Virus record (IMG/VR): IMGVR_UViG_3300009709_000001
Coordinates: 317,336 to 381,335 of that record
Source of the DNA: a virus
Taxonomy: Duplodnaviria; Heunggongvirae; Uroviricota; Caudoviricetes
Length of the DNA: 64,000 bases
Strand: one strand, 5' to 3'
Made by a program: the position numbers and the translations under genes. This document shows positions 672 through 63,709 of the stretch, one piece after another (position 1 is the stretch's first letter; each line of letters starts with the position of its first letter). The notes under the pieces were generated by a model, which saw nothing but the letters and a program-made list of their open reading frames with translations, did no database searches and was not told the origin of the DNA.

Positions 672-946
672 TCTTGTTCCTTGTAGGAGCCGTGCACCGG
701 ACACACATCGCCAAAATCTTCAAGGGAAAAATCTTCCCAGAATTTCGGATAATACCGGTCCTCTTCTGCAAGATAATACGTTCCGTATTTCTTAATCAGA
801 TCAAGATCGGTAATTTCTTTGTTGTGGAGCTTTACACAATCGGCAAGGTACTCGTTGTGCTTGGCAATGATCGGTGCTTGGGCCTTGGCCGCGGCCGCGC
901 GGGTCGCATCATCATAGCGGCGAGTTTTACCAAATCGTTTGGGCAT
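668..946 (-). CDS. hypothetical protein (92 aa)
   Basis: ORF track; co-directional array; no motif recognised. Confidence 0.5.
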   Translation of the reverse strand: MPKRFGKTRRYDDATRAAAAKAQAPIIAKHNEYLADCVKLHNKEITDLDLIKKYGTYYLAEEDRYYPKFWEDFSLEDFGDVCPVHGSYKEQE

Positions 947-1637
947 GGTGTTCCCTTAAAACCGAGTTTGACCATTGATAATAGTAACCGACCGAACCTT
1001 TAAGTCCCATTTTCTTTAGTGCTAAATTCGAACTACCTGTTTCGATATACAAACCCAAGAACTCATCTTTTCTCTTATCTAATTCAGCAAATTTTTTGTT
1101 ATCCTTTTTTCTACACTCTTTGCCACAGGTAAATTTTTTTACAGAATGTAGGAATTCGCAACCACAAACCCGACAAGTTTGAAAAGAATTATCAAAATCG
1201 TTAACTCTACCCTTAAGCCATCTCTGATCTAAATAAATCTGAATTTCAGAAATCTTTATCTTTTTATTCTCTCTTAGATTTCTATTATAGATCCAACAAG
1301 TTCCAAATTGGGAATTATTTTCACCACTCGATGATTCTTTAATCGATGTCTTGGCCCACTGATAAATTCTTCCCGTAAATCTTACTTGCTCCGATGACGA
1401 ACATTTTGCCATCATAATAGCTGCCCAGGCCAGTTTAGCATTTAATGGGTTTGCCTTACTCAATAGAAGATGTGCAACATAGTGTTCTTTTGCGGTTAGT
1501 TCTACAAGATTATTTAGATTGTCGGTTCCGCCCATGCACCGCGGAATAATATGATGCCTTTCGCGATACACTTCGTCGGATAAAACTCTGTCTTTTGCTT
1601 TTTCTATGAGATTATTGTATACTTTTTGATAATCCAA
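927..1637 (-). CDS. HNH homing endonuclease (236 aa)
   Basis: HNH core RERHHIIPRCMGGTDNLNNLVELTAKEHYVAHLLL; very AT-rich; first codon is TTG; paralog of 14903, 28365 and 46924 genes. Confidence 0.8.
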   Translation of the reverse strand: MDYQKVYNNLIEKAKDRVLSDEVYRERHHIIPRCMGGTDNLNNLVELTAKEHYVAHLLLSKANPLNAKLAWAAIMMAKCSSSEQVRFTGRIYQWAKTSIKESSSGENNSQFGTCWIYNRNLRENKKIKISEIQIYLDQRWLKGRVNDFDNSFQTCRVCGCEFLHSVKKFTCGKECRKKDNKKFAELDKRKDEFLGLYIETGSSNLALKKMGLKGSVGYYYQWSNSVLREHHAQTIW

Positions 1638-1638
1638 A

Positions 1639-1671
1639 ATACTTCTACTCCTATGATGGAAGTAGAAGTAT
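1639..1671 (-). promoter_or_regulatory. 11-bp perfect hairpin abutting the HNH start codon (RBS-occluding candidate)
   Basis: atacttctact (1639-1649) pairs with agtagaagtat (1661-1671), 11-nt loop; on the mRNA the only AGGAG lies at the loop/3' arm junction and the TTG start is 1 nt after the stem. Confidence 0.5.
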
Positions 1672-1681
1672 TTATCATTTT

Positions 1682-1760
1682 TGGTACCCCGGACAGGATT
1701 CGAACCTGCATTGACTCCATTACACTTCTACGCTTTAGAAGAGCGCTGTGGTACCGAGGT
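1682..1760 (-). tRNA. tRNA-like gene, 76 nt + encoded CCA; possible anticodon UCU (Arg); non-canonical D region
   Basis: Hand fold of minus strand: acceptor ACCTCGG/CCGGGGT (7 bp, one G-U), T arm GCAGG-TTCGAAT-CCTGT, discriminator A, CCA; only 5-bp/7-nt-loop arm is GCGCT-CTTCTAA-AGCGT, displaced 12 nt toward the 5' end; no canonical D arm found. Confidence 0.5.
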
Positions 1761-1768
1761 CTGAATTA

Positions 1769-2107
1769 TTATCTAAAAGCGAGAATAACTTTCTGTTTGA
1801 TTTCCATGAGGCGCATCGGACTCATCTTTGCCCGATAACACACCTCCAGCATTTCGTATTCTCTATCGCGAATTGGGGCGATCTTATGTTCTTTCCCCGA
1901 AAGCTTCAGGAATGTTTCGTACTCGCCATCAAGGCGAATAAGCATTCCGGTTCCCTCGTATACATAGAACATCGCACCACCACGAATTAGGGTCGAATTC
2001 CCTTTTATATCATATTCGGTGATTTCGATGTCTACGTAATCCTTCAACAATTCGTAGCAACCTGCAGGAAGCTCCCGAACTGCCGAAGCACGAGCGAAGT
2101 AAATCAT
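1769..2107 (-). CDS. hypothetical protein (112 aa)
   Basis: ORF 1769..2179 trimmed to ATG 2105-2107, which overlaps the stop of the 37-aa ORF (ATGA); stop lies 8 nt before the tRNA-like 5' end. Confidence 0.5.
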   Translation of the reverse strand: MIYFARASAVRELPAGCYELLKDYVDIEITEYDIKGNSTLIRGGAMFYVYEGTGMLIRLDGEYETFLKLSGKEHKIAPIRDREYEMLEVCYRAKMSPMRLMEIKQKVILAFR

Positions 2108-2217
2108 TGCATGAGCAGCGGGGCGACAGCCATGCACAACAGTTCGGTATTGGCACCGTAAGCAGTACGATACCACCAAACGGCCATGTAGTTGAGTGCA
2201 TCCAGGATTGTGTCCAT
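2104..2217 (-). CDS. small hydrophobic protein (37 aa, below ORF-track cutoff)
   Basis: Hand translation MDTILDALNYMAVWWYRTAYGANTELLCMAVAPLLMQ; AAGGAG 7 nt upstream of ATG; own TTGACA-17-TAAAAT promoter. Confidence 0.55.
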   Translation of the reverse strand: MDTILDALNYMAVWWYRTAYGANTELLCMAVAPLLMQ

Positions 2218-2239
2218 GATCTTGCTCCTTGTTGCCTAC

Positions 2240-3247: not shown

Positions 3248-3629
3248 CAATCAACTCTTTCAGTTTCTTATGTTGTTGTTGATTCCAGCCCATCGTTGCT
3301 TCACTCTGCACAAATTTCTCTTCAATCCAGACGTTAGGAATTTCCCATAATGACCGATAATTACCGTCGGTAAATCCGTAACGGTAATCTTGTGGCATGC
3401 GACGAACATTCAACCAGCCACAGTGACCAGTGATTGAGGTATACCAGACATGAGCTTTGTCGTATCTCGGTACAGACATGACCACATGTCCACGTTGCCA
3501 ACCAGTAGTGGTTGTATCACATTGCACCTTAAGCATGCAATCAACAGAAGCAACAATCGGACTGGCCGGCAAGTACCATGCCCCGGGGACAATGTCCCAT
3601 AGCAGAAGAGACTTGTGTTTCTTGCTCAC
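3228..3629 (-). CDS. hypothetical protein (133 aa)
   Basis: ORF track; 4-nt overlap with upstream gene. Confidence 0.55.
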   Translation of the reverse strand: MSKKHKSLLLWDIVPGAWYLPASPIVASVDCMLKVQCDTTTTGWQRGHVVMSVPRYDKAHVWYTSITGHCGWLNVRRMPQDYRYGFTDGNYRSLWEIPNVWIEEKFVQSEATMGWNQQQHKKLKELIDANALR

Positions 3630-4252: not shown

Positions 4253-4282
4253 CACAAACTCCTGAACTAATAGGTTGCATGC

Positions 4283-4311
4283 ATTGTAACGCATGCAAGA
4301 CGGTGTGTCAA
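4283..4311 (-). promoter_or_regulatory. sigma70-type promoter TTGACA-17-TACAAT
   Basis: Minus strand gcacTAATTGACAcaccgtcttgcatgcgtTACAATgcatgc; directly follows the stop of 4312..4731. Confidence 0.7.
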
Positions 4312-12355: not shown

Positions 12356-12687
12356 CAGTGAAAGCCGAGATATTTCTCAACTAACTCATTAATGTCTCTT
12401 TCGAGTTTTTCGGTATTGATGAATACCTTAATATCTCGCATCTTCTTGAATGTTTCTTCCATCACTTCCCAGTTCGCATCTTTGTTAACTGGAATTGGAT
12501 GGGTCAATTCGCTACCGCTAAGTTCAACAACATTACCATCATAATACTGCACCAAAATGTGTTCGATGTATTTTGCTGGAATTTCTTTAGCATCTACTTC
12601 TTTCACAATCCGGTCAAAGACTGATGGTTTAGCTATTCTGCTAATAGCCTTGTCGAGATTAAAGCTCGTTGTCCTTTTCGATGGCAT
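12352..12687 (-). CDS. hypothetical protein (111 aa)
   Basis: ORF track; 1-nt overlap with upstream GIY-YIG gene. Confidence 0.55.
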   Translation of the reverse strand: MPSKRTTSFNLDKAISRIAKPSVFDRIVKEVDAKEIPAKYIEHILVQYYDGNVVELSGSELTHPIPVNKDANWEVMEETFKKMRDIKVFINTEKLERDINELVEKYLGFHC

Positions 12688-13223
12688 TAAATAATCTCCT
12701 TATTTTTCTTGGCATTTTTATTGCCAATTTTTGCTAGAGATAATTTCTTTCTATGCTCATCGGACATATTCTTGGTCGCTAACGACAATTTGTCTTTTTG
12801 GGCTTGAGACATAGGGGGCCTGGATTTACCGATTAAACTATTAGAAATATTCTTTTTAGTCTCCTCGGATCTTATAGCACCGAGATGTCTTTGAGAAATT
12901 TTTTCCTTCGATTCTCTAGTATGCTTATATCCGGATGTTCCTTCGACGCCGTTGGTAAAATTCCAAAGTGTTCCTGTTTCTAGATCACGACGACCAAAAA
13001 TTGATATTAAACATTCTTCGAGAAAGAATGAATGTTCTTCGTCCAGTGCATTTATAATTTCGATATTGACGGAAAATCCCGAATCTATAATCTTTTGTTT
13101 TCTAGATTCGACATTTTTATTTTTATCGACTTTAAATCTTCTACCTGTCCCCTTACCGACATAGAATGGCTCATTATTTCTTGTCGGATCTCTAAGAATA
13201 TAGGTAAAGAATTTCTTTGCCAT
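12687..13223 (-). CDS. GIY-YIG homing endonuclease (178 aa)
   Basis: FFTYILRDPTRNNEPFYVGKGTGRR; four NUMOD3-like repeats (HTRESKEKIS, RSEETKKNIS, MSQAQKDKLS, MSDEHRKKLS); AT-rich. Confidence 0.8.
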   Translation of the reverse strand: MAKKFFTYILRDPTRNNEPFYVGKGTGRRFKVDKNKNVESRKQKIIDSGFSVNIEIINALDEEHSFFLEECLISIFGRRDLETGTLWNFTNGVEGTSGYKHTRESKEKISQRHLGAIRSEETKKNISNSLIGKSRPPMSQAQKDKLSLATKNMSDEHRKKLSLAKIGNKNAKKNKEII

Positions 13224-14902: not shown

Positions 14903-15439
14903 TTACAAAGAATACAGCAATGCAGTGATTATAGCGGAATCTTTGGCTTTCTGCAAGTCTAACCAATATTTCTTCCAATATAAATCAACTTCTTCGGGAG
15001 TTTTGAATGGCCGTTGTTTATAGGTGGTATTTCTAAGAGCTTCAGCCCTTTTAGCAATATGCTCGGGTGTTTGTTTACGACCGCGATTAGCATTACCTAT
15101 CTTTTTCTTGTGTTGTTCGGATTTTGGCTTGTCTTTGTGAAGTTTTGAGATTTCTTCAGCCACACGATTTCTTAACCATCCGTACATTTTATTCCTTTTT
15201 ACTTTTCCATCTTTGGACATTCTAACCAATGCGAAAATAAGATATGGATGTTCCGGATATATACGAACTAATAACCTATGTGCAAGCCAATGTTCTTCGG
15301 CTGTTAGTTTAACGATATTTTCGGGATCATCTGTGCCACCTATGCATCGTGGAATTATATGATGCTTTTCGCAATATCCGATAATTTCACGTGATTTGGC
15401 ACATTCGATGAGTTTATTGTATGCTTCTTGATATTTCAT
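14903..15439 (-). CDS. HNH homing endonuclease (178 aa)
   Basis: HHIIPRCIGGTDDPENIVKLTAEEHWLAHRLL; N-terminus MKYQEAYNKLIE parallels MDYQKVYNNLIE of the 927 gene, so the start is set to ATG 15439 (track start 15472 is TTG). Confidence 0.8.
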   Translation of the reverse strand: MKYQEAYNKLIECAKSREIIGYCEKHHIIPRCIGGTDDPENIVKLTAEEHWLAHRLLVRIYPEHPYLIFALVRMSKDGKVKRNKMYGWLRNRVAEEISKLHKDKPKSEQHKKKIGNANRGRKQTPEHIAKRAEALRNTTYKQRPFKTPEEVDLYWKKYWLDLQKAKDSAIITALLYSL

Positions 15440-15501
15440 AACTTGAGATAATACCAGTGGATCTACATCCAAGCCGGCAATTTGGTAAATAATCAGTGCT
15501 C

Positions 15502-15696: not shown

Positions 15697-16305
15697 TTAG
15701 TCGGAATCCTTATTACTGGGTTCCCGAAGGCGTTGCCTGGGTACATTCACCACATGGATGAGATGCTCGGGCCAATCCACATAGTATGCCCATTCCGGTT
15801 CACGAATTTGAAGTGGCATCGTTTTCTTCTTTGCCAGTATCTCGTAGTAAGTCGGAACATGCGGCATCTTCTTAGGAACAATCTTTGCATTGTCGCCCTT
15901 GGTGCTGTTACAGTCCTTGCAAGCGGTGCAAATATTTTTCCAGTTGGATTTACCACCCATAGACGCAGGGACTACGTGGTCCAGCGTGAGCTCATTCACT
16001 TTGGCTTTTCCGCGGTTTTCCTTGCAATGCTTAGTGATTTGCAGCTGGCACGTGTAGTCGTCACGCAGGTAAATGTTGCCACGTGAATACTTCACCTTCT
16101 TATCCCATGAAACGTGCTTGACCATCATGACAATAGAAGGTACCTTGATCTCAAGCTTTTGAGACTTGATAACCCAGTCGTCGTATTCCTTAACAACCCT
16201 AACCTTACCATTATAGAGCATGTGCAATGCTCGTGCGGCAGGAATCACTGAGAAAGGACTCAGTGACATCGGTTGGCCGTCGGCATTAAGCAGTAATGTA
16301 TCCAT
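15697..16305 (-). CDS. HNH endonuclease (202 aa, McrA-like core)
   Basis: LTLDHVVPASMGGKSNWKNICTACKDCNSTKG. Confidence 0.75.
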   Translation of the reverse strand: MDTLLLNADGQPMSLSPFSVIPAARALHMLYNGKVRVVKEYDDWVIKSQKLEIKVPSIVMMVKHVSWDKKVKYSRGNIYLRDDYTCQLQITKHCKENRGKAKVNELTLDHVVPASMGGKSNWKNICTACKDCNSTKGDNAKIVPKKMPHVPTYYEILAKKKTMPLQIREPEWAYYVDWPEHLIHVVNVPRQRLREPSNKDSD

Positions 16306-20418: not shown

Positions 20419-21405
20419 ATGGTAAATGTATTCTATAAGGAATTTCTAAAGATGAAGACACACAAATGCGAAAATATGACTTGCCAGAATAAATCCGAAA
20501 AGGATAAGTACGGCAATTATAAAAGATACTGCTCGGATGAATGCAAAAAGGTATCGAGATTATTAAAATTCAAAGAAACATATCAACATAAAGATATGGG
20601 TGCAATATTACAAAAACGAAAAGATACATTATTGTCTAAGTATGGTGTCGAGAACGCAGCATGTATATCTGAGGTCAAAGAAAAACTGCGTATAACCACT
20701 ACTAATACCGCGCAAATCCGCACAATAAAAACTAAAGAGACAAACTTAGCACGTTACGGCGTTGAGAGTACAAATTCCCTTGAGTCTGTTCAAGAGAAGA
20801 AAAAGCAAACCTTACTTGAAAGGTACGGCGTAGATCATCAACTTAAAATACCAGGAGTAGCTGCCGAAGTTTCGAAGAAGAATTCGGAAAATGCTAAGGA
20901 GCGACTAGTAAAGTCGAAGAAGACCAATCTTGAAAGATATGGATGTGAAAATCCATCTGCAAACGAAGATATCAAACTCAAAAGAACTGCAACTATGATT
21001 GAACGGTTCGGTGTAGAGAATGCATCGCAGAATGCTAAGGTTCAGTCGAAAAAAGTCAGGGCCGGCTTTAAGACTAAAAAATATACTTTCCCGTCCGGAA
21101 GAATAGACCATGTCCAAGGATATGAACCTTTGGCACTCAGTCAACTTTTACAGGAGGGATATCAAGAAAATGACATTATTACGCTTGATGAATTGATGCC
21201 GGAACTATGGTATCATGAATCGGATGGATCTAAGCGCAGATATTTCCCAGATATTTATATCCCGAAAGAAAATCTATTAATCGAAGTTAAATCCGAATAT
21301 ACTTATCGCGGATTTATTGGTTGGCTAATAACCAACCAATTAAAAGAGCAATGTGCCAGAGATGCTGGATTTAATTATCGACTAATGATAATGGTAAAGA
21401 AATAA
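20419..21405 (+). CDS. repeat-rich PD-(D/E)xK-like homing endonuclease candidate (328 aa)
   Basis: Five ~35-aa modules (KYGVENAAC, RYGVESTNS, RYGVDHQLK, RYGCENPSA, RFGVENASQ); C-terminal YFPDIYIPKENLLIEVKSEYT (D...ExK); AT-rich, antisense to the gene array; alternative start at 20452. Confidence 0.55.
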   Translation: MVNVFYKEFLKMKTHKCENMTCQNKSEKDKYGNYKRYCSDECKKVSRLLKFKETYQHKDMGAILQKRKDTLLSKYGVENAACISEVKEKLRITTTNTAQIRTIKTKETNLARYGVESTNSLESVQEKKKQTLLERYGVDHQLKIPGVAAEVSKKNSENAKERLVKSKKTNLERYGCENPSANEDIKLKRTATMIERFGVENASQNAKVQSKKVRAGFKTKKYTFPSGRIDHVQGYEPLALSQLLQEGYQENDIITLDELMPELWYHESDGSKRRYFPDIYIPKENLLIEVKSEYTYRGFIGWLITNQLKEQCARDAGFNYRLMIMVKK

Positions 21406-24128: not shown

Positions 24129-24881
24129 ATGCAAGAATTTAAACCAACATGGTTATACATAAAGAAACACAATATCACTGGTTTACAATATTTCGGTAAA
24201 ACAAATAGATATCATCCCGAGAAATATATAGGGTCTGGAAAATACTGGCTAGCGCATTTAAGGGTGCATGGAAAAGATATATCAACAACATGGTGTGAAC
24301 TATTCTTCGACCAGCAAACATTGGTAGAATATGCGCTTAAATTTTCAAAAGAAAATAATATAGCCGAATCAAGTGAATGGGCCAATCTTAAGTTTGAAAA
24401 CGGTCTTGATGGAGGTCACAGTGGCGTGGCAAGGAGCGATGAGACAAAGGAAAAATTATCTAAGAAAAATAGAGGAAAACGACATACAAAGGAAACCAAA
24501 AATAAAATTTCAGATTCCAATAAAGGTAAACATAACATGGTAAGACCTGCAGATGTCGGAGCCAAAATTTCGAAAGCACTGACCGGTAAAAAACGAGGTC
24601 CAATGCCAGATGAAACAAAAAGAAAAATTGGTGATGCAAATAAAGGAAAACCTTCATCAAAGAAGGGTATACCAATGCCAGATGAAACAAAAAGAAAAAT
24701 TGGTGATGCAAATAAAGGAAAACCTTCATCAAAGAAGGGTATACCTAGGTCAGCTATTGATAAAGATAAAATCAGAAAAGGCCAAGAAAATGTACCCGAA
24801 ATAACTTGCCCACACTGTCATATTTCAAATAAACCCGGATGTATGAAAAGATGGCACTTTGATAATTGTAAAAAGAAATAA
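24129..24881 (+). CDS. GIY-YIG-type (Seg-like) homing endonuclease (250 aa)
   Basis: WLYIKKHNITGLQYFGKTN; NUMOD3-like repeats (RSDETKEKLS, HTKETKNKIS, PMPDETKRKIG x2); C-terminal CPHC...KRWHFDNC zinc finger; AGGAGA RBS. Confidence 0.75.
   Translation: MQEFKPTWLYIKKHNITGLQYFGKTNRYHPEKYIGSGKYWLAHLRVHGKDISTTWCELFFDQQTLVEYALKFSKENNIAESSEWANLKFENGLDGGHSGVARSDETKEKLSKKNRGKRHTKETKNKISDSNKGKHNMVRPADVGAKISKALTGKKRGPMPDETKRKIGDANKGKPSSKKGIPMPDETKRKIGDANKGKPSSKKGIPRSAIDKDKIRKGQENVPEITCPHCHISNKPGCMKRWHFDNCKKK
24600..24744. repeat. perfect 72-bp tandem duplication (2 copies) inside the endonuclease gene
   Basis: caatgccagatgaaacaaaaagaaaaattggtgatgcaaataaaggaaaaccttcatcaaagaagggtatac at 24601-24672 and 24673-24744; duplicates 24 aa PMPDETKRKIGDANKGKPSSKKGI. 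Confidence 0.95.
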
Positions 24882-28364: not shown

Positions 28365-29192
28365 ATGAATACTCCATTTCTAAATAACAAATATACTGCC
28401 CGATATTATAAAATTATTAATACCGTTTTAGAATTAAATCGAAAGAAATTAAAAAGAAATAACCCTGATTACAGGTATTATGAATTGCATCATATTATTC
28501 CCAAATCATTAGGTGGTGACAATTCTTCTGCAAATCTTATACCTTTGACACCAAGGGAACATTATATATGCCACCTTTTACTCACCCGAATGACTGAAGG
28601 TAAAAATAGATATAAGATGCTCTGTGCATTCAACAGAATAACAAATAGAGGCCAGGCAGAAATTAAAAATTCTAGATTATATAATTCTATTCGAGAAGAC
28701 TTTTCGAAATCGCAGGCCGAAAATTATAAAGGTGATAAAAATCATTTTTATGGAAAGACTCACACAAAAGAAATCAGAGATTATTTAGCTGAGGTATGTC
28801 CACGATTCGGTAAAGATAATGGCAATTTTGGTAAATCATTATCTCAATCACAAAAAGATGCAATTTCGAAAAGTAATAAATCCAGAAAAATTATACCTCC
28901 ACCTCCGCAACTCGGTTCAAAAAATCATTTTTCTAAGATTTATAAAATAATCGACCCAACCGGTAATAAATTTACAATAAAATGCATGAGTGAATTTTGT
29001 GAAAGAAACAATCTTTGTAGTCGAACAATGATTTTATTTAAGGACAAAGGAAAAATTCCTGAATTGCAATTCGAACGAGAATATCGTGTAAAGAATCTCC
29101 AAGCAAAGAAGAACTGTGAAGGTTATTCTATTATTTCAATGACCTCGCCCCTTGGTCCTTTTCCATCAATCGACCATACAGTTACCGGATAA
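28365..29192 (+). CDS. HNH homing endonuclease (275 aa)
   Basis: LHHIIPKSLGGDNSSANLIPLTPREHYICHLLL; a 70-nt sample at the 5' end is 23% G+C by hand count; 3' end overlaps the macro-domain gene by 70 nt (convergent). Confidence 0.8.
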   Translation: MNTPFLNNKYTARYYKIINTVLELNRKKLKRNNPDYRYYELHHIIPKSLGGDNSSANLIPLTPREHYICHLLLTRMTEGKNRYKMLCAFNRITNRGQAEIKNSRLYNSIREDFSKSQAENYKGDKNHFYGKTHTKEIRDYLAEVCPRFGKDNGNFGKSLSQSQKDAISKSNKSRKIIPPPPQLGSKNHFSKIYKIIDPTGNKFTIKCMSEFCERNNLCSRTMILFKDKGKIPELQFEREYRVKNLQAKKNCEGYSIISMTSPLGPFPSIDHTVTG

Positions 29193-35618: not shown

Positions 35619-36884
35619 TTAGCCCTTGACACATAACACCTGCTTCAAGGTGTGTACAACCTTGACCAAGTCAGTTTGGCTGAGCATCACATCGTCAATG
35701 GACTTATAGGCTGCCGGACTTTCGTCAATCATGCCTTCGTCCTTACGGCATTCCACACCTGCAGTGGCCGCCACGTGTTCTTCAACCGTAATTTCCTTCT
35801 TTGCTTTGGAACGGCTCATCTTGCGTCCTGCACCATGGCTGCATGAGCAGAAGCTTTCAACATTACCCAGGCCTTCAACGATGAAGCTCTTTGCACCCAT
35901 CGAGCCCGGGATGATGCCCAACTCACCAGCTTGTGCGCTTACCGCGCCCTTACGAGTAACGATCACGTTTTCACCAAAGTGAACTTCTTCGTTGATGTAG
36001 TTGTGGTGGCAATTGATAGCTTCCTTCGTGATCTTGAAGACAGGAAGATGACGAGTCAGCGCCGTAATAACCAGTTCCAACATTGCGTCACGGTTGCGAC
36101 GTGCGTATTCCTGCGCCCAGCTCATTGCCTCGACATAATCGTCGTAATGTTGGCTACCTTCCTGCAAGTAAGCCAGATCCTTGTTCGGAAGAACAATCTT
36201 CTGTTCTTCAGCGTCTTTCTGTGCCAGCTCGATAAAGTAACGACCGATTGCATTACCAATGCCGCGAGAACCACTGTGGAGCATAATCCACACATCGTTG
36301 TTTTCATCGATGCACAGTTCGATGAAGTGATTGCCTCCGCCCAACGAACCGAGCTGAGTACGCGCCTTCTTTTCAGCGTCCTTGACCATCTTGTCGATGC
36401 CAGGATGCTTTGCAACGATTGCTTCCAGGCCAGTCTTCAGATTCTTGAACTGGTTGTTCAGAACGGTGCGTGTATTTTGATGACCCTTGCCATTCAAACG
36501 GTCGGTACTGTGTTCGTCGAACCCAACAGGCACCATCAATTCGATTTCGGAACGAACCTTGTGCAGATTGTCCGGAAGCTGATCAGCAGTCAAGCTGGTA
36601 CGACATGCAATCATGCCGCAACCAATATCAACGCCAACAGCCGCAGGAATTACAGTGCCGTGCGTTGCAAGCACCGTACCAACAGTAGAACCAGTACCAA
36701 CGTGTACGTCCGGCATCGCAGCCACGTGCTTAAATACAAAAGGCAGTTTGGTAATGCTGCGAAGTTGATCGATCGCGCCGGATTCGACGGGGACGTGCTT
36801 AGTCCACATTTTCACATCAACAAGGTCTCCTCGAATTAAATTATATGGGAGATATTTCTCATCATTAATATCTTCTTGCATCAT
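35619..36884 (-). CDS. rtcB: RtcB RNA 3'-phosphate ligase (421 aa)
   Basis: HSGSRGIGN, CHHNY and CSCSHGAGR motifs; full length. Confidence 0.95.
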   Translation of the reverse strand: MMQEDINDEKYLPYNLIRGDLVDVKMWTKHVPVESGAIDQLRSITKLPFVFKHVAAMPDVHVGTGSTVGTVLATHGTVIPAAVGVDIGCGMIACRTSLTADQLPDNLHKVRSEIELMVPVGFDEHSTDRLNGKGHQNTRTVLNNQFKNLKTGLEAIVAKHPGIDKMVKDAEKKARTQLGSLGGGNHFIELCIDENNDVWIMLHSGSRGIGNAIGRYFIELAQKDAEEQKIVLPNKDLAYLQEGSQHYDDYVEAMSWAQEYARRNRDAMLELVITALTRHLPVFKITKEAINCHHNYINEEVHFGENVIVTRKGAVSAQAGELGIIPGSMGAKSFIVEGLGNVESFCSCSHGAGRKMSRSKAKKEITVEEHVAATAGVECRKDEGMIDESPAAYKSIDDVMLSQTDLVKVVHTLKQVLCVKG

Positions 36885-37558
36885 TTTTCCTTACAATTAT
36901 CGAAATGCCATCTTTTCATTTGGCTATTACCGCCAATTTTACCACAATATGGGCACTCAATTTTTATACGAGGAACTCTCATTTTTATTTTTTGTTCCTC
37001 GCTCATTGGTCTATTTTTACTAAATGGTTCTCTACCTTTGTTAGCCAAAGAAATTTTATTTTTCGTTTCTTGAGTTGTAATATGCCCCTTCAGGGAATTG
37101 GATCGTTTTATATTTTCTTCTATTGAAGGTTTTCTACCGGGTACACCTTTCTTAGATTTCGAAATTTTTTCTTTTGTAGAGGCTAAACACGGGCCGGTAC
37201 TCTTTCCAATTTTTGCTACAGACATTTTGGACTTGGCGGCTTCAGAATGTTTTCTTCCACCCGGACCTTCGCCGCCATCTGTTAGATTAAGCAACGGACC
37301 TTTACCGAGATCTTTTCTTCCAAATTTAGAAATAAGTTCTTCCTCAATTAAGTGCGCCAGTTCTTCATCGAGGCCAGAATAAATACCAATAATCGGAATA
37401 ATTTGGTTTCTTTCCATTAATTTTAATCGTTGTATTAATGGATGTTTTCCTTTTCTCTTTAAATGACTCCATGCACGACTATCTCTGCCTTTACCGACAT
37501 ATATCGGTTCATTATTTCGAGAAGGATCGTAGTAGATATAGGTGTAATAATTATTCAT
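36881..37558 (-). CDS. GIY-YIG homing endonuclease (225 aa)
   Basis: YYTYIYYDPSRNNEPIYVGKGRDSRAWSH; NUMOD3-like repeats; C-terminal CPYC...KRWHFDNC zinc finger; stop overlaps the rtcB ATG (ATGA). Confidence 0.8.
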   Translation of the reverse strand: MNNYYTYIYYDPSRNNEPIYVGKGRDSRAWSHLKRKGKHPLIQRLKLMERNQIIPIIGIYSGLDEELAHLIEEELISKFGRKDLGKGPLLNLTDGGEGPGGRKHSEAAKSKMSVAKIGKSTGPCLASTKEKISKSKKGVPGRKPSIEENIKRSNSLKGHITTQETKNKISLANKGREPFSKNRPMSEEQKIKMRVPRIKIECPYCGKIGGNSQMKRWHFDNCKEK

Positions 37559-46923: not shown

Positions 46924-47592
46924 ATGATCAATATTCATTTTTATAAAACATTTTTAGGTAACAAATACTCGAAATGGTATTTGTCTATTATTGTTGCTGC
47001 ACAATCGAAAAATCGTAAAAAATCCGAAGATTGCTATTACGAGCGTCATCATATTATACCCAAATCTATAAATCCTGAGATTTCGAACTTAAAATTAAAT
47101 CCCTGGAATGGAGTATTACTAACCGCGAAAGAGCATTTCATTTGTCATCTTCTTCTTACAAAAATGGCTATAGGAAAAGATAAGAATAAGATGATTTATG
47201 CATTATGGAATCTACGTAATCAGAAAACTAAATCTCAGGACCAGAGATTTACCTCAAATCTATACAACGTATACAAGAAACAGATGCAAGAAGCATTATC
47301 TGTAGATCGAAAAGGTAAATCTCTGGAAGAACGATACGGGATTACTCGTGCATCGGAGATTAAAGCATCCTACCGCACAAGAATCCCTCGTGGGAAAGTT
47401 TCCAATGAAGAAAAGGGTAAACTTTCTGAAAATATGAAAACTCTTCATCAAACCCGGCCTTGGAAAAGATTTATGCAAACCAACGGTGTTCTTCCAAAAA
47501 ATACCTGCCCGCATTGTAATAAAACAATGGATGTCGGTAATTATGGAAGATATCACGGGGACAAATGTAAATTACGCGAGATTAGCAAATAG
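46924..47592 (+). CDS. HNH homing endonuclease (222 aa)
   Basis: RHHIIPKSINPEISNLKLNPWNGVLLTAKEHFICHLLL; C-terminal CPHC...YHGDKC zinc finger; first ATG is 46924 (track start 46909 is TTG); 3' end overlaps the QueE 3' end by 21 nt. Confidence 0.8.
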   Translation: MINIHFYKTFLGNKYSKWYLSIIVAAQSKNRKKSEDCYYERHHIIPKSINPEISNLKLNPWNGVLLTAKEHFICHLLLTKMAIGKDKNKMIYALWNLRNQKTKSQDQRFTSNLYNVYKKQMQEALSVDRKGKSLEERYGITRASEIKASYRTRIPRGKVSNEEKGKLSENMKTLHQTRPWKRFMQTNGVLPKNTCPHCNKTMDVGNYGRYHGDKCKLREISK

Positions 47593-48453
47593 ATGCATTT
47601 GCATTTGCATTCTGTAACCGTGCTCCATACAATATCTACCCACGTATTCGTGATTTTCTTGTATCTTCTGCATATTTAATAATCCCGGTTCGAAGAAATT
47701 AATAACTTCATCAACAGTTGAGCGCTCATCCATTGTGATATTGCCTTTTTCGTTGTGTAGAATTTTAATCTTCTGTGGAAGGCTGTTATACACATTCATC
47801 GGGCTAAGATATACTTCCTTAGTAGGATTATTTCTTTTCCACTCATGTGCCCATTCCGGAATTTGATTGTATGGGCTATCTGTTTCGGCACTAACGACAA
47901 ACTTCAAGCAATCTGCTCTTTCCAAAATTTGTTTGGTAGGAGAAAGATACTTAGTAGCCACACCATTCTTTTCAGCACATTTCGGGCTGCAAACGAGTGT
48001 AACACCTTCAGGAATAGGAAGATTTACAGTACCATTGCTTTCGATTTGTACTGCTCTGAAGTTAGGAACTTGTCTTTCTAGGAATGCTGTAAGGTTTGAT
48101 TGTAGTGTGGGTTCACCACCTGTAATAACCATAACAATGTTCGGGAAACTATATGCCTTCTTATCTGGATGTGCCCAAATAGGTGCTACACCACCTTTGT
48201 CTTCCCAATATTTATAGATCGTGTCACCTACCTTCTTTTCCAGTTCTTCATAAGTCATCCAATCTCCATCATCGAAGAATGTATCACAGAAAGAACAAGC
48301 TAGGTTACATTTTGTCAATCTAATGAATAGTGCAGGAGAACCGGCGTATGGACCCTCGCCTTGAAGTGTAAAGAACATACTTGTAACAAATAAACTATTC
48401 TCTGGTGCATCTTTGAAAAATTTCTGGCCAATAATTTGGTTAGTTCCGAACAT
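47572..48453 (-). CDS. queE: 7-carboxy-7-deazaguanine synthase QueE-like radical SAM enzyme (293 aa)
   Basis: TLQGEGPYAG followed by CNLACSFCDT (CxxxCxxC). Confidence 0.8.
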   Translation of the reverse strand: MFGTNQIIGQKFFKDAPENSLFVTSMFFTLQGEGPYAGSPALFIRLTKCNLACSFCDTFFDDGDWMTYEELEKKVGDTIYKYWEDKGGVAPIWAHPDKKAYSFPNIVMVITGGEPTLQSNLTAFLERQVPNFRAVQIESNGTVNLPIPEGVTLVCSPKCAEKNGVATKYLSPTKQILERADCLKFVVSAETDSPYNQIPEWAHEWKRNNPTKEVYLSPMNVYNSLPQKIKILHNEKGNITMDERSTVDEVINFFEPGLLNMQKIQENHEYVGRYCMEHGYRMQMQMHLFANLA

Positions 48454-48985
48454 CTATTAATTCCTTCATTTCGTTTAGTGATAGAAATAACTTTTCACAG
48501 CTAAAACCATCTTTCTTATATTTGCTATTTTCTAAACACCAGCTTCTTATTGTTGTGTGATAAACACCGTAGAATTTGGCAGCGTGTTCTAGGGATGGAA
48601 ATTTTCCGTCTAGTGTGGTTACCAACATTTTCCATCCTTTTGCATCATCTCTGTCAATTTTGCCGAGAGAACACTCAACTTCTGGAACAACATATTCTCT
48701 AGAAAGGTAATTTATTGCACTTTGTAGAAGAGAAATATCATCCTTGAATAACCCGAGTGCGGTGTTGCAGTCAGTGCATAGTAGACCTCTGATTTTTCCA
48801 GATACATGATTATGATCAACTGCTAGATCTCTTCCGCAATAGTCGACTTGCTGGCAGATGCAACAGACACCATTTTGATCGGATTTTATTGCTTCATATT
48901 GATCGTAGTTTATTCCAAACTTCAAAAGAAGCCCATTTTTCTTTCTTCTTTTTTTAGATCTTTCCGGTGTATTAATTATTCCCAT
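48440..48985 (-). CDS. Endonuclease VII-type (HNH-like) homing endonuclease candidate (181 aa)
   Basis: CCICQ...LAVDHNHVSGKIRGLLCTDCNTALG; C-terminal HTH-like tail; AT-rich. Confidence 0.75.
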   Translation of the reverse strand: MGIINTPERSKKRRKKNGLLLKFGINYDQYEAIKSDQNGVCCICQQVDYCGRDLAVDHNHVSGKIRGLLCTDCNTALGLFKDDISLLQSAINYLSREYVVPEVECSLGKIDRDDAKGWKMLVTTLDGKFPSLEHAAKFYGVYHTTIRSWCLENSKYKKDGFSCEKLFLSLNEMKELIDVRN

Positions 48986-56954: not shown

Positions 56955-57153
56955 ATATTTCTTGTACTTTGGCTATCAGTAATTCAACTGTCCAACCGTG
57001 TTTTGCGATAGTGTCTAATGCACCAGATGGAAACCATACAGATTCATCCTGCCGAACTTCGTATAAGCGACCATATTTGGCTATCATCTCTGTGTGCAGA
57101 GTATGAAAGCTTGATCTCTTTAATCGTTCGAATGTAAGGTCAATGTCTTCCAT
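56941..57153 (-). CDS. TFxxLxRTPF/GWT small protein family member (70 aa)
   Basis: LTFERLKRSSFHTL ... KHGWTVELLIAKV. Confidence 0.55.
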   Translation of the reverse strand: MEDIDLTFERLKRSSFHTLHTEMIAKYGRLYEVRQDESVWFPSGALDTIAKHGWTVELLIAKVQEIYDKK

Positions 57154-57371: not shown

Positions 57372-57372
57372 C

Positions 57373-58125: not shown

Positions 58126-58165
58126 AGTTGTTCCTTATGTTTCTAGTATTTCTACAGCTTTTCAC

Positions 58166-58194
58166 AGTTTAAAGACTTTCAGCGCGAAAGTCAA
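58166..58194 (-). promoter_or_regulatory. sigma70-type promoter TTGACT-17-TAAACT
   Basis: Minus strand aaaTTTGACTttcgcgctgaaagtcttTAAACTgtg; the spacer pairs with the PolB 3' end (ttcagcgcg/cgcgctgaa). Confidence 0.6.
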
Positions 58195-58199
58195 ATTTT

Positions 58200-61151: not shown

Positions 61152-61402
61152 TAGCCGAGACCTCCAGCCTTGTATAGTTCTTCAAGTTCGTCCCAATCTT
61201 CACGGGCGTCATTCATTCGACCCTTTTGAACGATCTTGATTAGCTTATTCAACTGTGCTGGTTTGACTTCTAGTTCCTCGGCGATTGCCTTCACTGTTTC
61301 ATTGAGACCTTGCTTCAGGTCTTCGCATTCCTGAAGAACTGATACACCATCTTGAACGAGTTGTTTCAGACGTGTGATATTTTCTTGGCTAAGTTTCGCC
61401 AT
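61151..61402 (-). CDS. hypothetical protein (83 aa)
   Basis: ORF track; 1-nt overlap with PolB. Confidence 0.55.
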
Positions 61403-62000
61403 TTTTATTTTTCTCCTGCTCTAATTTTCTTTTAGCCCATCGCTCTTTCATCGATGCACTCTGTTTCATTTTTGCTTCAGGCGTCTGTGGTTGTCCCTTA
61501 TTATAAGGCACTCTACCAGACATATTCTTACTCATTGATTCTTTTGCGGATTCTGTGTGTTTGCGACCCAACATCGGGTGCTGCAATTTAGATCTTGCTT
61601 CGGTTGCTTTTTCATAAACCCAGTCGGGTTGTCTTTTGCCGAAAAATGAGCTATTTTCACCAGAGTGTTGCTGTCTTAATTTTTCTCTAATTTCCGGTGT
61701 TTTAGCATCAGACATTTTCTGTTTGGTTTCAGCAGTATGTTTTCTTCCCGAGGCGCCTTCACCACCGTCGGTTAAATTTCTAAGAATACCTGTTCCGATA
61801 TCTTTTCTGCCATACCAACGAATATATCTTCGTTCTAGTGCAAATGCACCTATTTCTGTAAGATTAGACTCGAGTATAATAATCCGAAATTTATCCGGTG
61901 GGACATTTACAGTATGTCGACCGAGAAATCTTTTACCTGATCCTTTACCGATATAATAAGGAGTATTATCTACTCTAAGATAAGCGTAAACATAGAACAT
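61389..62000 (-). CDS. GIY-YIG homing endonuclease (203 aa)
   Basis: [24 protein letters not shown]; NUMOD3-like repeats ([20 protein letters not shown]). Confidence 0.8.
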
Positions 62001-62021
62001 AAATTACTTACCATTTCAGTA

Positions 62022-62050
62022 AGTATACTCTAGACAACATTGAAAGTCAA
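62022..62050 (-). promoter_or_regulatory. sigma70-type promoter TTGACT-17-TATACT
   Basis: Minus strand actcTTGACTttcaatgttgtctagagTATACTtactg. Confidence 0.65.
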
Positions 62051-62079
62051 GAGTTTCAATGCAAGTCAAAAAAGGGAGA

Positions 62080-62670
62080 TCAGAATCTTCCGTAGGCATC
62101 CCCGGTAATAGGATCGTTGGTTCCCTTATACATATGGGGATCATAGCCGTGAATTGGAGACAATAAACCCTTGGCTTGATTGTCATCACGTACATCACCG
62201 GTAAATCTGTACATTTGGTCAGGCATTACTCGCTTGAACCATTCGACAATTAGCGGTCTAACATCTTGACCGGGCTCTGATTCTTCGATTGACTTGAACT
62301 GATCTGTTAATTCATCGTCATCAATTAGGCCTTCAATAAAAATCGGTGCTATCACAGCAGGGATTGGTTTCTCAAGCATTTTCTTTGCAAGCTCAAAATC
62401 ATCATTTGAGAGTGGCAAACGATGTACTGCTTCAGATAAGGTATTTGACATGCACATTTCCGGAACTAGGCCTTTAAGTTCACGATAATCTGCACGAAGC
62501 TTATCTTTTAGGAATTCTCTGCCGTTAGGAGATGTTCCTGGGTGCATAATCTTATCAACATATCGATCCATGCGTCCTTGGAGCATGTCAATACGCATGG
62601 CTGTTTGCGGCGAGAGGCTACGATCACTCATAGCCCCTTTCGGTAATAATAGTTCTAGAATTCGCATCAT
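62080..62670 (-). CDS. hypothetical protein (196 aa)
   Basis: ORF track. Confidence 0.55.
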   Translation of the reverse strand: MMRILELLLPKGAMSDRSLSPQTAMRIDMLQGRMDRYVDKIMHPGTSPNGREFLKDKLRADYRELKGLVPEMCMSNTLSEAVHRLPLSNDDFELAKKMLEKPIPAVIAPIFIEGLIDDDELTDQFKSIEESEPGQDVRPLIVEWFKRVMPDQMYRFTGDVRDDNQAKGLLSPIHGYDPHMYKGTNDPITGDAYGRF

Positions 62671-62696
62671 GTATTTATCACATGATGCGTCGGTTA

Positions 62697-63068
62697 TTAA
62701 CCGATAGCGAATTCTTCCGCTACGCTTGTAGGAATAAGATCGACATCAAATTCCTTAGCAAATTCAACCAACATTGGAAGAACAAAAACAGTTCCCGGGA
62801 TCGCAAGCAAGAATGCAAAGCGAGTAGAAACCATCAATTCATGTGCTATCTTGTTGGCCTTGGCAATTTCATTTACCGATGCATCACCGGTAGTTGCCTT
62901 CTGATAAATCTGCCACATTTCCTTGCTGTTCTTGGATTCAGCTTGGAAAACGGCCTTAACCTTTTCAAGCAATGCCTTCACATCAGTTTCGTTCTTTGGA
63001 AACTGAGTAAGGTAGCTCGAAGTTACTTTGAAAAATTCTTGTGGGGTCTTTGGAATGGGTCTGAACAT
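62697..63068 (-). CDS. hypothetical protein (123 aa)
   Basis: ORF 62697..63101 trimmed to MFRPIPK (AGGAGA 6 nt upstream of ATG 63068). Confidence 0.55.
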   Translation of the reverse strand: MFRPIPKTPQEFFKVTSSYLTQFPKNETDVKALLEKVKAVFQAESKNSKEMWQIYQKATTGDASVNEIAKANKIAHELMVSTRFAFLLAIPGTVFVLPMLVEFAKEFDVDLIPTSVAEEFAIG

Positions 63069-63169
63069 ATAGTGTCTCCTGTTTATTATTGTGCATTGCA
63101 CGATATTTGTAATGTAGCATATTTACCTCTTGCAGTGCAACATTTCCTTATTACGCGGTAAATATTTGT

Positions 63170-63709
63170 ATGAATACTATCAAATATTGTGCATTACCCG
63201 AATGTGGTAAACCTTTCACTAATTGGAGAAGTTCTTGTTGTTGCAAAAGCCATCAGGGAATCTTTTCGGCTAAAAGTCGACATGGAACACTTGGTAAGCC
63301 TAACATATCAAAAGAGGAATTGAAGATAAAGGCAAAAGATAGAAAAATTCTAAATCAAGAATTTATAGGCCCAAAGAAACCAAAAGAAAAAAGAGTCTAT
63401 ACCAAGAAAGTAAAAACATCTTCCGAATATATAACAATCGAAGAAAGAAAGGCTAAATGGGCAGCTTATATTGCAAATAGGAAGAAGAAAAGGGATCAGT
63501 CAATGCCAGCATGGGCTGACAAAGATAAGATTTTAGAATTCTATATAGAAGCAAGAAAACTTACAAAAGAAACTGGAATACTTCATGAGGTTGATCATAT
63601 TATCCCTTCTAATCATAAGTTAGTCTGTGGTTTACACAATGAGTTTAATCTTCAGATATTAACCAAAGATGAAAATCGTAAGAAAAGTAATAAATTCAAA
63701 ATAGAATAA
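63170..63709 (+). CDS. HNH endonuclease (179 aa)
   Basis: HEVDHIIPSNHKLVCGLHNEFNLQILTKDENRKKSNKF; N-terminal Cys cluster; AT-rich. Confidence 0.8.
   Translation: MNTIKYCALPECGKPFTNWRSSCCCKSHQGIFSAKSRHGTLGKPNISKEELKIKAKDRKILNQEFIGPKKPKEKRVYTKKVKTSSEYITIEERKAKWAAYIANRKKKRDQSMPAWADKDKILEFYIEARKLTKETGILHEVDHIIPSNHKLVCGLHNEFNLQILTKDENRKKSNKFKIE

Follow-up and report, generated by a model that had tools for sequence, protein, structure and literature searches.

The stretch of DNA analysed here (the window, 64 kb) is part of a 385,394-bp metagenome contig from an uncultivated jumbo T4-like phage of about 385 kb, and the identical sequence was recovered from two assemblies (JGI and Logan SRR5829574). 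Its PolB is 40–43% identical to those of the jumbo phages Phosso, Atu_ph07, and RaK2. The comparison set comprises 241 related IMG/VR loci, not de-replicated, in which PolB identity is mostly 75–86% and gene order is collinear with the window; no counterpart of window positions 1–8 kb (around the gene at 927) was found among the relatives fetched. Twelve open reading frames had been proposed by a first-pass annotation to be homing-endonuclease genes. All twelve are present, family or profile matches identify a nuclease core in each, and the catalytic residues of the cores are intact in alignments. Four are phrog_655-type HNH genes and four are GIY-YIG genes with NUMOD3; the other four are an Endo VII/Hpy99I-like gene, a divergent HNH gene, an HNH_5 gene, and a DUF7487 gene whose product has a TnsA/Vsr-like PD-(D/E)xK domain. 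The HMM searches that had been suggested as a check matched NUMOD3, Endonuclease_7, HNH, and HNH_5, and GIY-YIG was recognized through a family profile rather than the Pfam model. Jackhmmer found no extra paralogues of these nucleases in the window. The nuclease genes, together with a tRNA gene adjoining one of them, are as follows.

927..1637, minus strand: free-standing HNH homing-endonuclease gene (phrog_655 5.5e-44; HHIIP...EH..H; GC 0.357)
1685..1760, minus strand: tRNA gene (Rfam RF00005, 35.2 bits vs a gathering score of 29)
12687..13223, minus strand: free-standing GIY-YIG + NUMOD3 homing-endonuclease gene (NUMOD3 1.1e-6; phrog_314; GIY-YIG invariants in alignment)
14903..15472, minus strand: free-standing HNH homing-endonuclease gene (phrog_655 1e-51; Pfam HNH 8e-5)
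15697..16305, minus strand: HNH_5 protein gene (Pfam HNH_5 7e-12; PDB 4h9d 6e-6; GC 0.471, rank 97 of 116)
20419..21405, plus strand: free-standing DUF7487 gene (zinc finger, five helical "YGV" repeats, C-terminal TnsA/Vsr-like PD-(D/E)xK)
24129..24881, plus strand: free-standing GIY-YIG (Seg-like variant) + NUMOD3 gene with a C-terminal CPHC...RWHFDNC zinc finger (NUMOD3 7e-14; phrog_314)
28365..29192, plus strand: free-standing HNH homing-endonuclease gene with NUMOD3 (phrog_655 1e-34; HNH and HNH_4 3e-4; GC 0.316)
36881..37558, minus strand: free-standing GIY-YIG + NUMOD3 + zinc finger gene (NUMOD3 1e-10; family profile vs PDB 9u75 3.6e-5)
46924..47592, plus strand: free-standing HNH homing-endonuclease gene (phrog_655 1.6e-37)
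48440..48985, minus strand: free-standing Endo VII/Hpy99I-like (beta-beta-alpha-Me) endonuclease gene (Pfam Endonuclease_7 7e-22; Hpy99I 5.6e-8; T4 Endo VII 1e-4)
61389..62000, minus strand: free-standing GIY-YIG + NUMOD3 gene (NUMOD3 1e-14; phrog_15526 and phrog_314)
63170..63709, plus strand: free-standing divergent HNH gene with an N-terminal Cys-rich region (family profile vs Cas9 HNH domain 7e-4; GC 0.320)

The genes at 927, 14903, 28365, and 46924 (the last likely starting at the ATG at 46924 of a reading frame that opens at a TTG at 46909) all match phrog_655, "homing endonuclease", with E values of 1e-34 to 1e-52, share the motif HHIIP...N...EH..H, and retrieve one another in jackhmmer searches. 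The 927 gene lies immediately downstream of the tRNA gene, which was not called by ARAGORN, and is preceded by GATAAATA and an AGGAG ribosome-binding site. The 28365 gene has the highest AT content of all genes in the window. The 46924 gene is convergent with a QueE-like gene, and its C-terminal zinc-finger/NUMOD module is common to the GIY-YIG genes. In the four GIY-YIG genes (12687, 24129, 36881, and 61389) NUMOD3 is matched at 1e-6 to 1e-14; their N-terminal domain has no match to the Pfam GIY-YIG model, and their family profile matches the solved GIY-YIG domain of PDB 9u75 (3.6e-5), with Y20, G22, G24, and N91 invariant and R28 and E72 nearly invariant in the alignment. The 12687 gene is preceded by TATAAATA and GGGAG, the stop of the 36881 gene overlaps the start of RtcB by 4 bp, and the 61389 gene lies directly upstream of a DsbA-like gene and the PolB operon.

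The 48440 gene belongs to a 595-bp cassette (about 48454–49047) that carries a hairpin, TATAAATA, and AAGGAG, and that DNA alignment fits, to the base, between a stop codon upstream and the ATG of the QueE-like gene. Its protein has Leu at the position of T4 Endo VII E65, as does Hpy99I, and by sequence comparison it is closer to the sequence-specific Hpy99I than to the T4 resolvase. The true start of the 20419 gene is probably the ATG at 20452, and no mention of DUF7487 was found in the literature searched. The 63170 gene has no Pfam match and no homologue in the 241 relative loci; D142, H143, N160, and N169 are invariant in its family.

The twelfth candidate, at 15697, keeps its syntenic place in 34/34 relatives (54–63% identity), and its GC and codon usage are typical, which rules it out as a mobile homing endonuclease and identifies it as a conserved core HNH protein; its N-terminus is possibly IscB-PLMP-like. 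The proposed total of twelve homing-endonuclease genes is therefore reduced to eleven, or one per 5.8 kb and 11.6% of the bases, counted over 64 kb of a genome of about 385 kb.

The composition of the eleven is foreign and their orientation strand-independent. As a group the nuclease genes had been described as among the most AT-rich, and 11 of the 12 do take ranks between 1 and 26 when the 116 genes are ordered by GC (median 0.357 vs 0.423; Mann-Whitney 1.6e-7), the exception being 15697. Nucleases account for five of the eight credible plus-strand genes, as had been noted (Fisher 1.4e-4), and half of the eleven are antisense to a genome that is 97% minus-strand. An ATAAATA resembling the T4 late promoter lies upstream of 7/11; at 28365 and 36881 the start codon follows it after about 5 nt, too short a distance for a promoter. 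The nuclease genes are all intergenic, and none is carried by an intron or intein (Rfam found no group I intron in the window); at four sites other than 48440, the nuclease reading frames overlap a neighbouring gene by 1–20 bp. Their placement had been characterized as beside conserved enzymes. The flanking genes are conserved among relatives, but several have no known function, and "between genes conserved among relatives" is the better wording. Most of the neighbours that had been named are verified: the tRNA, the macro-domain gene, RtcB, the QueE-like radical SAM gene (nucleases on both flanks, at 46909 and 48440), and PolB, where the neighbour is a DsbA-like gene plus PolB. The MoxR label is plausible because that AAA ATPase is paired with a DUF2201/VWA gene, and no family match was found for the "NMNAT-like" gene at 62080–62670.

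The comparison with related genomes, which had been set beforehand as the refutation test, came out in favour of mobility for 10 of the 12 genes: these vary in presence or absence at collinear sites, most of them missing in all relatives, and 15697 is syntenic throughout. The gene is missing at 12687 in 39/39 relatives (flanking genes 68–238 bp apart), at 28365 in 9/9 (gap of 36–310 bp between the AAA and macro-domain genes), at 48440 in 20/20 (flanking genes 2–13 bp apart in 13), and at 63170 in 25/25 with both flanks (gap of 97–176 bp in 22). It is likewise missing at 24129 in 9/9 loci with both flanks and at 36881 in 6/6; copies of these two genes adjoin the 23746 homologue in three relatives (51–53% identical) and abut RtcB in one (67% identical), respectively. 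The remaining sites are occupied in some relatives: 14903 by a 37–53% identical HNH gene in 5/41 (other inserts in 2/41; no such gene in 34/41, with a gap of 151–308 bp), 20419 in 9/34 close relatives, 46924 in 2/21 (one full-length gene at 53% identity and one remnant), and 61389 by a 40–53% identical GIY-YIG gene in 6, against 10 that are clearly empty (77–92 bp) and many with other inserts. Relatives also bear the same nuclease families at sites that are empty here, for example the DsbA/PolB junction and downstream of PolB. Same-site copies are 37–67% identical, whereas flanking genes are 60–85% identical, and paralogues within the window are 29–44% identical, each having a closer homologue (62–69%) in other metagenomes. 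These patterns point to independent acquisitions. Some of the genes may be inactive or domesticated, since the shared-site copies are old (at most 67% identical).

Eleven of the twelve genes are thus very probably free-standing homing-endonuclease genes, selfish cassettes that have independently invaded intergenic sites of a jumbo T4-like phage. What the DNA itself documents is catalytic residues preserved across four nuclease folds, placement in spacers between collinear conserved genes, variable occupancy of 10 sites, one insertion resolved to the base, foreign composition, orientation regardless of strand, and, for most, a late-promoter-like element; site-specific cleavage, the identities of the targets, and current activity would follow by analogy with T4 seg and mob genes. 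On that model, in a mixed infection the nuclease would cut the corresponding allele of a related phage that lacks it, at a target within or close to the conserved neighbour, and recombinational repair would then copy the nuclease gene and flanking markers into the cut genome.

That the nucleases have instead been domesticated, being kept for phage benefit with selfish homing no longer the driver, is unlikely. The benefits proposed include excluding competitor phages or satellites, amplifying or mobilising cargo neighbours (as for T4-type SegB and "HEG islands"), and DNA processing for replication or packaging. In this clade an HNH protein can belong to the fixed core, as 15697 does, and the 927 gene adjoins a tRNA, like T4 SegB (PMC2330249, PMC13096335). 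Nucleases bracket both the QueE-like gene (46909 and 48440) and a GC-rich block at 24922–27966 (24129 and 28365), resembling HEG islands (PMC10448857), but the bracketed cargo is not unusually similar (QueE-like at most 71% identity, neighbours 66–68%), and such benefits are compatible with selfish homing rather than exclusive of it. The foreign composition of the nucleases and the lack of ten of the genes in most or all close relatives, unexpected for useful fixed functions, argue for selfish cassettes. It is very improbable that the density is an artefact, whether of the assembly of strain variants or of ordinary phage nucleases (a resolvase, a packaging HNH, or a repair enzyme) mistaken for mobile ones. 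HNH proteins help terminases in some phages, Endo VII is the T4 resolvase family, and one of the twelve (15697) is indeed an ordinary phage nuclease. The 48440 gene, by comparison, is missing in all 20 relatives, where its neighbours are normally 2–13 bp apart, and is nearer Hpy99I than the T4 resolvase. Although the sequence is a metagenome contig, the same sequence is present in both assemblies, and at the 48440 junction, the one with a clean base-level alignment, neither neighbouring gene is disrupted.

The genome is an outlier in its own clade for nuclease load. With the same HMM set, which was seeded from the window's own genes and so under-counts in relatives any families absent from the window, eight syntenic 40–66 kb regions of relatives contain 4, 0, 0, 2, 1, 2, 0, and 1 genes, vs 11 here. 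One example missed by these HMMs is a Vsr-like gene that lies inside PolB, which is split, in six relatives; when 108 ORFs specific to relatives were scanned with Pfam, no homing-endonuclease family had at least two members. Density had been put at about twice that of T4, which has 15 homing endonucleases in about 169 kb (PMC2988022); the arithmetic is right, but the value is not unprecedented. Pectobacterium phage CB7 (Certrevirus) has a comparable density, with 23 in 142.8 kb, or one per 6.2 kb (PMC7344957), although that figure is for a whole genome, and the window is thus roughly level with the most heavily infested phages known. As in the window, the CB7 genes are mostly free-standing and close relatives have far fewer; unlike those of the window, which are all free-standing and of four folds, they are almost all HNH, five lie in introns, and LAGLIDADG enzymes occur in inteins.

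The window is a well-supported new example of a known phenomenon, and the element type is already well understood. T4 carries free-standing GIY-YIG (Seg A–G) and HNH (Mob A–E) enzymes that undergo intronless homing and marker exclusion, their genes lying between conserved genes (PMC2988022). The window resembles T4 in its T4-like host, in GIY-YIG and HNH enzymes with NUMOD-type DNA-binding modules, in nuclease genes that are sporadic among relatives and occupy the spaces between genes which those relatives conserve, in late-promoter-like upstream elements, in the tRNA neighbour shared with SegB, and in being one heavily infested genome in its clade, as T4 is among T-even phages. It differs in that its proteins are no more than distant relatives of the T4 enzymes (the Pfam GIY-YIG model does not match them at all), in its roughly twofold local density, in cleavage and homing being putative here, and in two added folds, the PD-(D/E)xK DUF7487 and Endo VII/Hpy99I-like nucleases. 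The unusually high nucleotide identity of bracketed cargo between otherwise diverged phages that defines the HEG islands of Barth, Dunham and Seed 2023 (PMC10448857) is not seen here; the bracketing of conserved genes by nucleases of different classes, the different or absent endonuclease genes at cognate sites in relatives, and the shuffling of DNA-binding modules between nuclease classes are alike.

For the two added folds, partial parallels exist. F-CphI of cyanophage S-PM2 (PMC6083498) is a free-standing homing endonuclease with the Endo VII catalytic motif, and in both cases an Endo VII-type beta-beta-alpha-Me nuclease serves a free-standing mobile gene of a T4-like phage. It is the C-terminus of F-CphI that is reported to align with Endo VII's catalytic domain, which is N-terminal there; in the 48440 protein the motif is N-terminal (residues 22–95), and about 85 further residues extend beyond it. 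PD-(D/E)xK and EDxHD homing endonucleases (I-Ssp6803I, I-Bth0305I) and TnsA/Vsr-like nucleases are known (PMC3239194); unlike the intron-encoded I-Ssp6803I and I-Bth0305I, the 20419 gene is free-standing, and its family, a Pfam DUF, has an architecture of its own, with a zinc finger and five helical "YGV" repeats.

Ten of the nuclease genes in the window are absent from some or all of the collinear related loci, which is the polymorphism that the first-pass annotation had proposed to seek at each site. The window (GC 0.432, transcribed almost wholly from the minus strand) is a portion of an uncultivated jumbo T4-like phage. This placement follows from its family-B DNA polymerase (PolB, 58200-61151; 40-43% identity to the jumbo myoviruses Phosso, Atu_ph07, and RaK2/K64-1), from three proteins with 100% identical copies on a 385,394-bp JGI metagenome contig, and from the additional presence of the window sequence in Logan assemblies of SRR5829574. 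A megablast search of 50,697 phage records with 12 kb (window 50000-62000, a segment that excludes the cargo genes bracketed by nuclease genes) returned no match, and thus no annotated close relative. Relatives were drawn instead from 241 IMG/VR loci gathered via anchors (PolB, a DUF2201 protein, an RNase H-like exonuclease, RtcB, and one further anchor). Many of these loci belong to a clade with PolB 75-86% identical, some lie on contigs of 100-370 kb, and their gene order is collinear with that of the window.

At each nuclease site, the distance between the homologues of both flanking genes and the content of the gap were recorded in the relatives. Homologues of the flanking genes, 60-85% identical, were present in 9 to 105 of the related loci. 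Comparisons are few for the RtcB site, whose anchor yielded 3 loci, and nil for 927, where the 3626-4294 anchor brought in distant loci alone; window 1-8 kb, around 927, has almost no counterpart among the relatives' loci.

Occupancy of nuclease sites in related loci. Genes are named by start position.
12687, GIY-YIG with NUMOD3: absent from 39 of 39 relatives; flanking genes 68-238 bp apart
14903, phrog_655-type HNH: absent from 34 of 41; same-site HNH gene, 37-53% identical, in 5; other inserts in 2
20419, DUF7487: DUF2201-AAA gap of 77 bp to 7.7 kb in relatives; 9 of 34 close relatives have a DUF7487 gene, which may point either way and is 71-244 bp from the AAA gene in every case
24129, GIY-YIG with NUMOD3: absent from 9 of 9; a 51-53% copy beside the same neighbor in three other loci
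28365, phrog_655-type HNH: absent from 9 of 9; gap of 36-310 bp
36881, GIY-YIG with NUMOD3: absent from 6 of 6; a 67% copy abuts RtcB in the locus L078, the same arrangement as in the window
46909 (likely start 46924), phrog_655-type HNH: one full copy and one remnant among 21 relatives
48440, Endo VII/Hpy99I-like: absent from 20 of 20; flanking genes 2-13 bp apart in 13
61389, GIY-YIG with NUMOD3: clearly empty (77-92 bp) in 10; a 40-53% GIY-YIG gene in 6
63170, divergent HNH: absent from 25 of 25; no homologue in any of the 241 loci

The genes are intergenic and outside any intron or intein, and the ten compared with related loci lie between genes conserved in relatives. At 63170, the DNA alignment with relatives is too diverged for exact insertion boundaries. 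The neighbors named in the first-pass annotation were mostly recovered, namely a tRNA, an AAA ATPase with a DUF2201/VWA partner, a macro domain gene, RtcB, a QueE-like radical SAM gene, and a DsbA-like gene together with PolB; for the neighbor labeled NMNAT-like, no family match was obtained. The tRNA (1685-1760, minus strand) scores 35.2 bits with Rfam, above the gathering score, while ARAGORN makes no call; it may be divergent or degenerate.

All twelve nuclease open reading frames claimed for the window are present, and their proposed cores are matched by Pfam, PHROG, or family profiles with catalytic residues intact; the folds are recognized homing-endonuclease folds, as expected of free-standing genes of the T4 seg/mob type. 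No additional paralogues emerged when the six reading frames of the window were searched iteratively. Four genes (927, 14903, 28365, and 46909/46924) match phrog_655, "homing endonuclease," at 1e-35 to 1e-52 and carry the HHIIP...EH..H (HH...N...H) motif, with merely marginal matches to Pfam HNH models. The four GIY-YIG candidates (12687, 24129, 36881, and 61389) have NUMOD3 matches at 1e-6 to 1e-14 and no match to the Pfam GIY-YIG model at E<=0.01. Their family alignment (34 sequences) conserves Y5/Y7/Y9, Y20-x-G22-x-G24, R28, E72, and N91, and the family profile matches a solved GIY-YIG domain (PDB 9u75) at 3.6e-5 and UvrC weakly. The candidates therefore show the defining features of the superfamily (motifs, Arg, catalytic Glu, Asn, and a domain of ~90 residues), with 24129 as a divergent variant. 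The product of 63170 has no Pfam match; D142, H143, N160, and N169 are invariant among the 31 members of its family alignment, and the family profile matches the Cas9 HNH domain at 7e-4. In 20419, a restriction-endonuclease fold and an acidic/Lys PD-(D/E)xK signature were found. Single-sequence PDB searches with the GIY-YIG, phrog_655 HNH, and DUF7487 proteins were uninformative, and their fold assignment required family profiles or predicted structure. Annotation pipelines would miss most of these genes, as the Pfam GIY-YIG and HNH models fall below threshold for 7 of the 11.

The twelfth gene, 15697, is a conserved core HNH protein outside the homing elements. Its match to Pfam HNH_5 is clear (7e-12), yet the first-pass listing of it among the homing genes fails on polymorphism: it is present and syntenic in 34 of 34 relatives at 54-63% identity, and it is excluded from the homing set for this reason. 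Its GC content (0.471, rank 97 of 116) and its codon usage are typical. Mobile HNH genes are inserted on either side of its homologue in various relatives. The N-terminus of the product (15697-16305, minus strand; LLLNADGQPMSLSPFS...AARALHMLYNGKVRVV) aligns weakly, at -3.3 bits and far from significance, with a region of TbaIscB (PDB 9k30) that we take to be the PLMP domain. As an unconfirmed lead, 15697 may represent a core gene of the clade that encodes a stand-alone PLMP-HNH protein.

Base composition and orientation also set the eleven remaining genes apart, in the manner of foreign, autonomous cassettes. The claim that they are AT-rich is borne out (median GC 0.357 versus 0.423 for the other 105 genes, p = 1.6e-7; GC ranks 1-26 of 116), and most fall below the codon-usage score trained on long genes. 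The claimed strand bias likewise holds, with 5 of 11 nuclease genes on the plus strand versus 3 of 105 others (p = 1.4e-4), an excess that would follow if the genes entered a unidirectional genome without regard to orientation. In the window, 23 copies of the T4 late-promoter core ATAAATA were counted against 13.8 expected, and the motif lies <=60 nt upstream of 7 of 11 nuclease genes versus 7 of 105 others (p = 2e-5). A Shine-Dalgarno sequence follows the motif at a plausible distance at 927, 12687, 24129, and 48440; the copies at 28365 and 36881 sit too near the start codon to count as promoters. NUMOD3 and CPHC...RWHFDNC zinc-finger C-terminal modules are common to the GIY-YIG and HNH genes, and module shuffling between such endonuclease genes has already been described (PMC10448857). 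The set appears to have been acquired independently, gene by gene, rather than by recent duplication, because paralogues within the window are 29-44% identical, whereas closer homologues of each (62-69%) occur in other metagenomes.

The insertion is best defined at 48440, where DNA alignment places a 595-bp cassette precisely between the stop codon of the upstream gene and the QueE-like ATG; in relatives, these two codons overlap as TAATG. The insert carries a hairpin, TATAAATA, AAGGAG, and the open reading frame, the last codons of which enter the QueE-like gene. The product matches Pfam Endonuclease_7 at 7e-22 and has CxxC, DHxH, and CN motifs. A Holliday-junction resolvase of the T4 Endo VII type, which would be an essential, conserved phage gene with a complete catalytic set including E65, was considered. 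This identity was rejected: the gene is missing from the site in all the relatives compared, the 241 loci hold a single weak partial homologue, the restriction enzyme Hpy99I is a better match in the PDB (5.6e-8) than T4 Endo VII (1e-4), and Leu occupies the position of T4 E65, as it does in Hpy99I. Comparison with relatives at this site gives evidence, modestly novel, that the gene for an Endo VII/Hpy99I-like enzyme whose catalytic domain is N-terminal, a poorly characterized type, is mobile.

Sporadic occupancy of one intergenic site, in both orientations, is the basis for regarding DUF7487 genes as mobile. Judged from sequence, 20419 would combine the fold, signature, and mobility of a PD-(D/E)xK homing endonuclease. 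DUF7487 genes always adjoin the 3' end of the AAA gene, whichever way they point, which suggests that their target lies in this end. These comparisons provide evidence that DUF7487 proteins are encoded by mobile PD-(D/E)xK endonuclease genes, a modestly novel finding for a poorly characterized type. The DUF2201-AAA gap also receives other genes. In four loci of a more distant clade (L131, L132, L133, and L135; 45-48% identity), it holds a 326-aa open reading frame without similarity to any window gene, and in two others (L101 and L125) it holds RtcB-like or SPFH genes; the gap is a general insertion hot spot.

The free-standing homing-endonuclease interpretation of the first-pass annotation is supported for ten genes and likely for the eleventh (927), with 15697 reclassified as a core gene. 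An intron-encoded origin was dropped on the negative Rfam search, which found neither group I nor group II introns in the window. The window resembles HEG islands (PMC10448857) in that nuclease genes stand on both sides of the QueE-like gene and of the 24922-27966 block. The defining signature of such islands, however, is cargo far more similar between phages than the remainder of the genome, and it is absent here: protein identity of the bracketed QueE-like gene does not exceed 71%, versus 66-68% for its neighbors, and the bracketed GC-rich block is 49-74% identical to relatives. GC-rich genes (0.53-0.63, against 0.43 for the genome) lie at 18257-19456, 21484-22710, 24922-27966, and 31365-32857; they include a DUF2201/VWA-like gene, two AAA ATPases, and an SPFH protein, and several are flanked by nuclease genes. 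These nuclease-flanked blocks (GC 0.57-0.63) were considered as recent host-derived cargo, but the enrichment is a clade-wide property because homologues in relatives are likewise GC-enriched (0.48-0.53 versus ~0.41).

The window presents a new and unusually rich case of an element type that is already well known. Free-standing homing endonucleases influence marker exclusion between phages and the boundaries at which they recombine, and to our knowledge almost all experimental knowledge of them comes from T4. By analogy with the T4 paradigm (PMC2988022), each enzyme would break the DNA of a co-infecting relative that lacks the nuclease gene, within or close to the conserved neighbor, and repair by recombination would then transfer the nuclease gene along with flanking markers to the broken genome. 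Sequences of many empty-site alleles exist already; insertion points are therefore defined, and candidate targets can be synthesized for direct testing.

The eleven genes occupy 7,446 bp, or 11.6% of the window, at one per 5.8 kb. The claimed density of about twice that of T4 (15 genes, PMC2988022) stands, and it equals that of Pectobacterium phage CB7 (23 in 142,778 bp, 7% of the genome; PMC7344957). High density continues outside the window on the left, since an HNH_3 gene lies about 6.4-7 kb past that edge (L242:16572-17144), directly downstream of an FtsH-like AAA/peptidase M41 gene (658 aa); no such gene is evident in the 4.2 kb past the right edge. Eight reconstructed syntenic regions of relatives (40-66 kb) contain 4, 0, 0, 2, 1, 2, 0, and 1 such genes, as counted without the 15697 homologue by one profile set that was seeded from the window's genes and is therefore biased toward the window. 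These profiles missed one Vsr-like gene class in relatives with split PolB, and a Pfam scan of 108 relative-specific open reading frames found no endonuclease family among those with >=2 members; at least 20 further families had a single member. This genome is an outlier of its clade, as is T4 among the T-evens, to which "no other phage comes close" (PMC2988022). It adds a second clade with the T4 pattern of a heavily infested genome amid sparsely infested, collinear relatives.

A bolder and rather doubtful proposal is that the phage is a "super-host" for homing endonucleases, with DUF7487 as an uncharacterized free-standing PD-(D/E)xK homing family. If the density (11 in 64 kb plus the left-edge HNH gene) held over ~385 kb, the genome would carry several dozen genes of at least four folds, the largest homing-endonuclease load reported for any phage. 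With close relatives that carry almost no such genes, the clade would then be a natural setting in which to study the conditions that allow endonuclease genes to build up, and the tandem helical "YGV" repeats of DUF7487 could be a modular DNA-recognition array.

Several further features of the window and its relatives were observed. A 123-aa open reading frame (52780-53151, minus strand) aligns with the N-terminal portion of major head protein families (phrog_138, 1e-10) and overlaps by 28 bp the next one (51593-52807, 404 aa), which is conserved in 46 loci; tblastn of the former in relatives gave no match. The interval 51593-53151 may represent a capsid gene that is split or has a frameshift, or else a misassembly. 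Among the 108 relative-specific open reading frames of the eight syntenic regions, 7 match NAD-dependent epimerase/dehydratase, a gene that the window lacks, and genes for Acb1 (anti-CBASS), GGDEF, peptide deformylase, NifU, or UvdE occur there in single relatives.

PolB is uninterrupted in the window. In six relatives (L056, L057, L058, L062, L071, and L075), it is split at one residue (685/686, just past YGDTDS) by inserts of 0.5-1.6 kb, and an Rfam intron search at the split found none. In L057 (795-5340), the N-terminal half runs beyond YGDTDS into extra sequence, and the C-terminal half opens with extra sequence ending ...LLHN|S; together these resemble a split intein. A 336-aa open reading frame between the two halves has "KYGEE" helical repeats and a Vsr-like "FYGTYWH" C-terminus. 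The split PolB of this locus matches the "fractured gene" arrangement, a split intein with a free-standing endonuclease, of PMC2677866.
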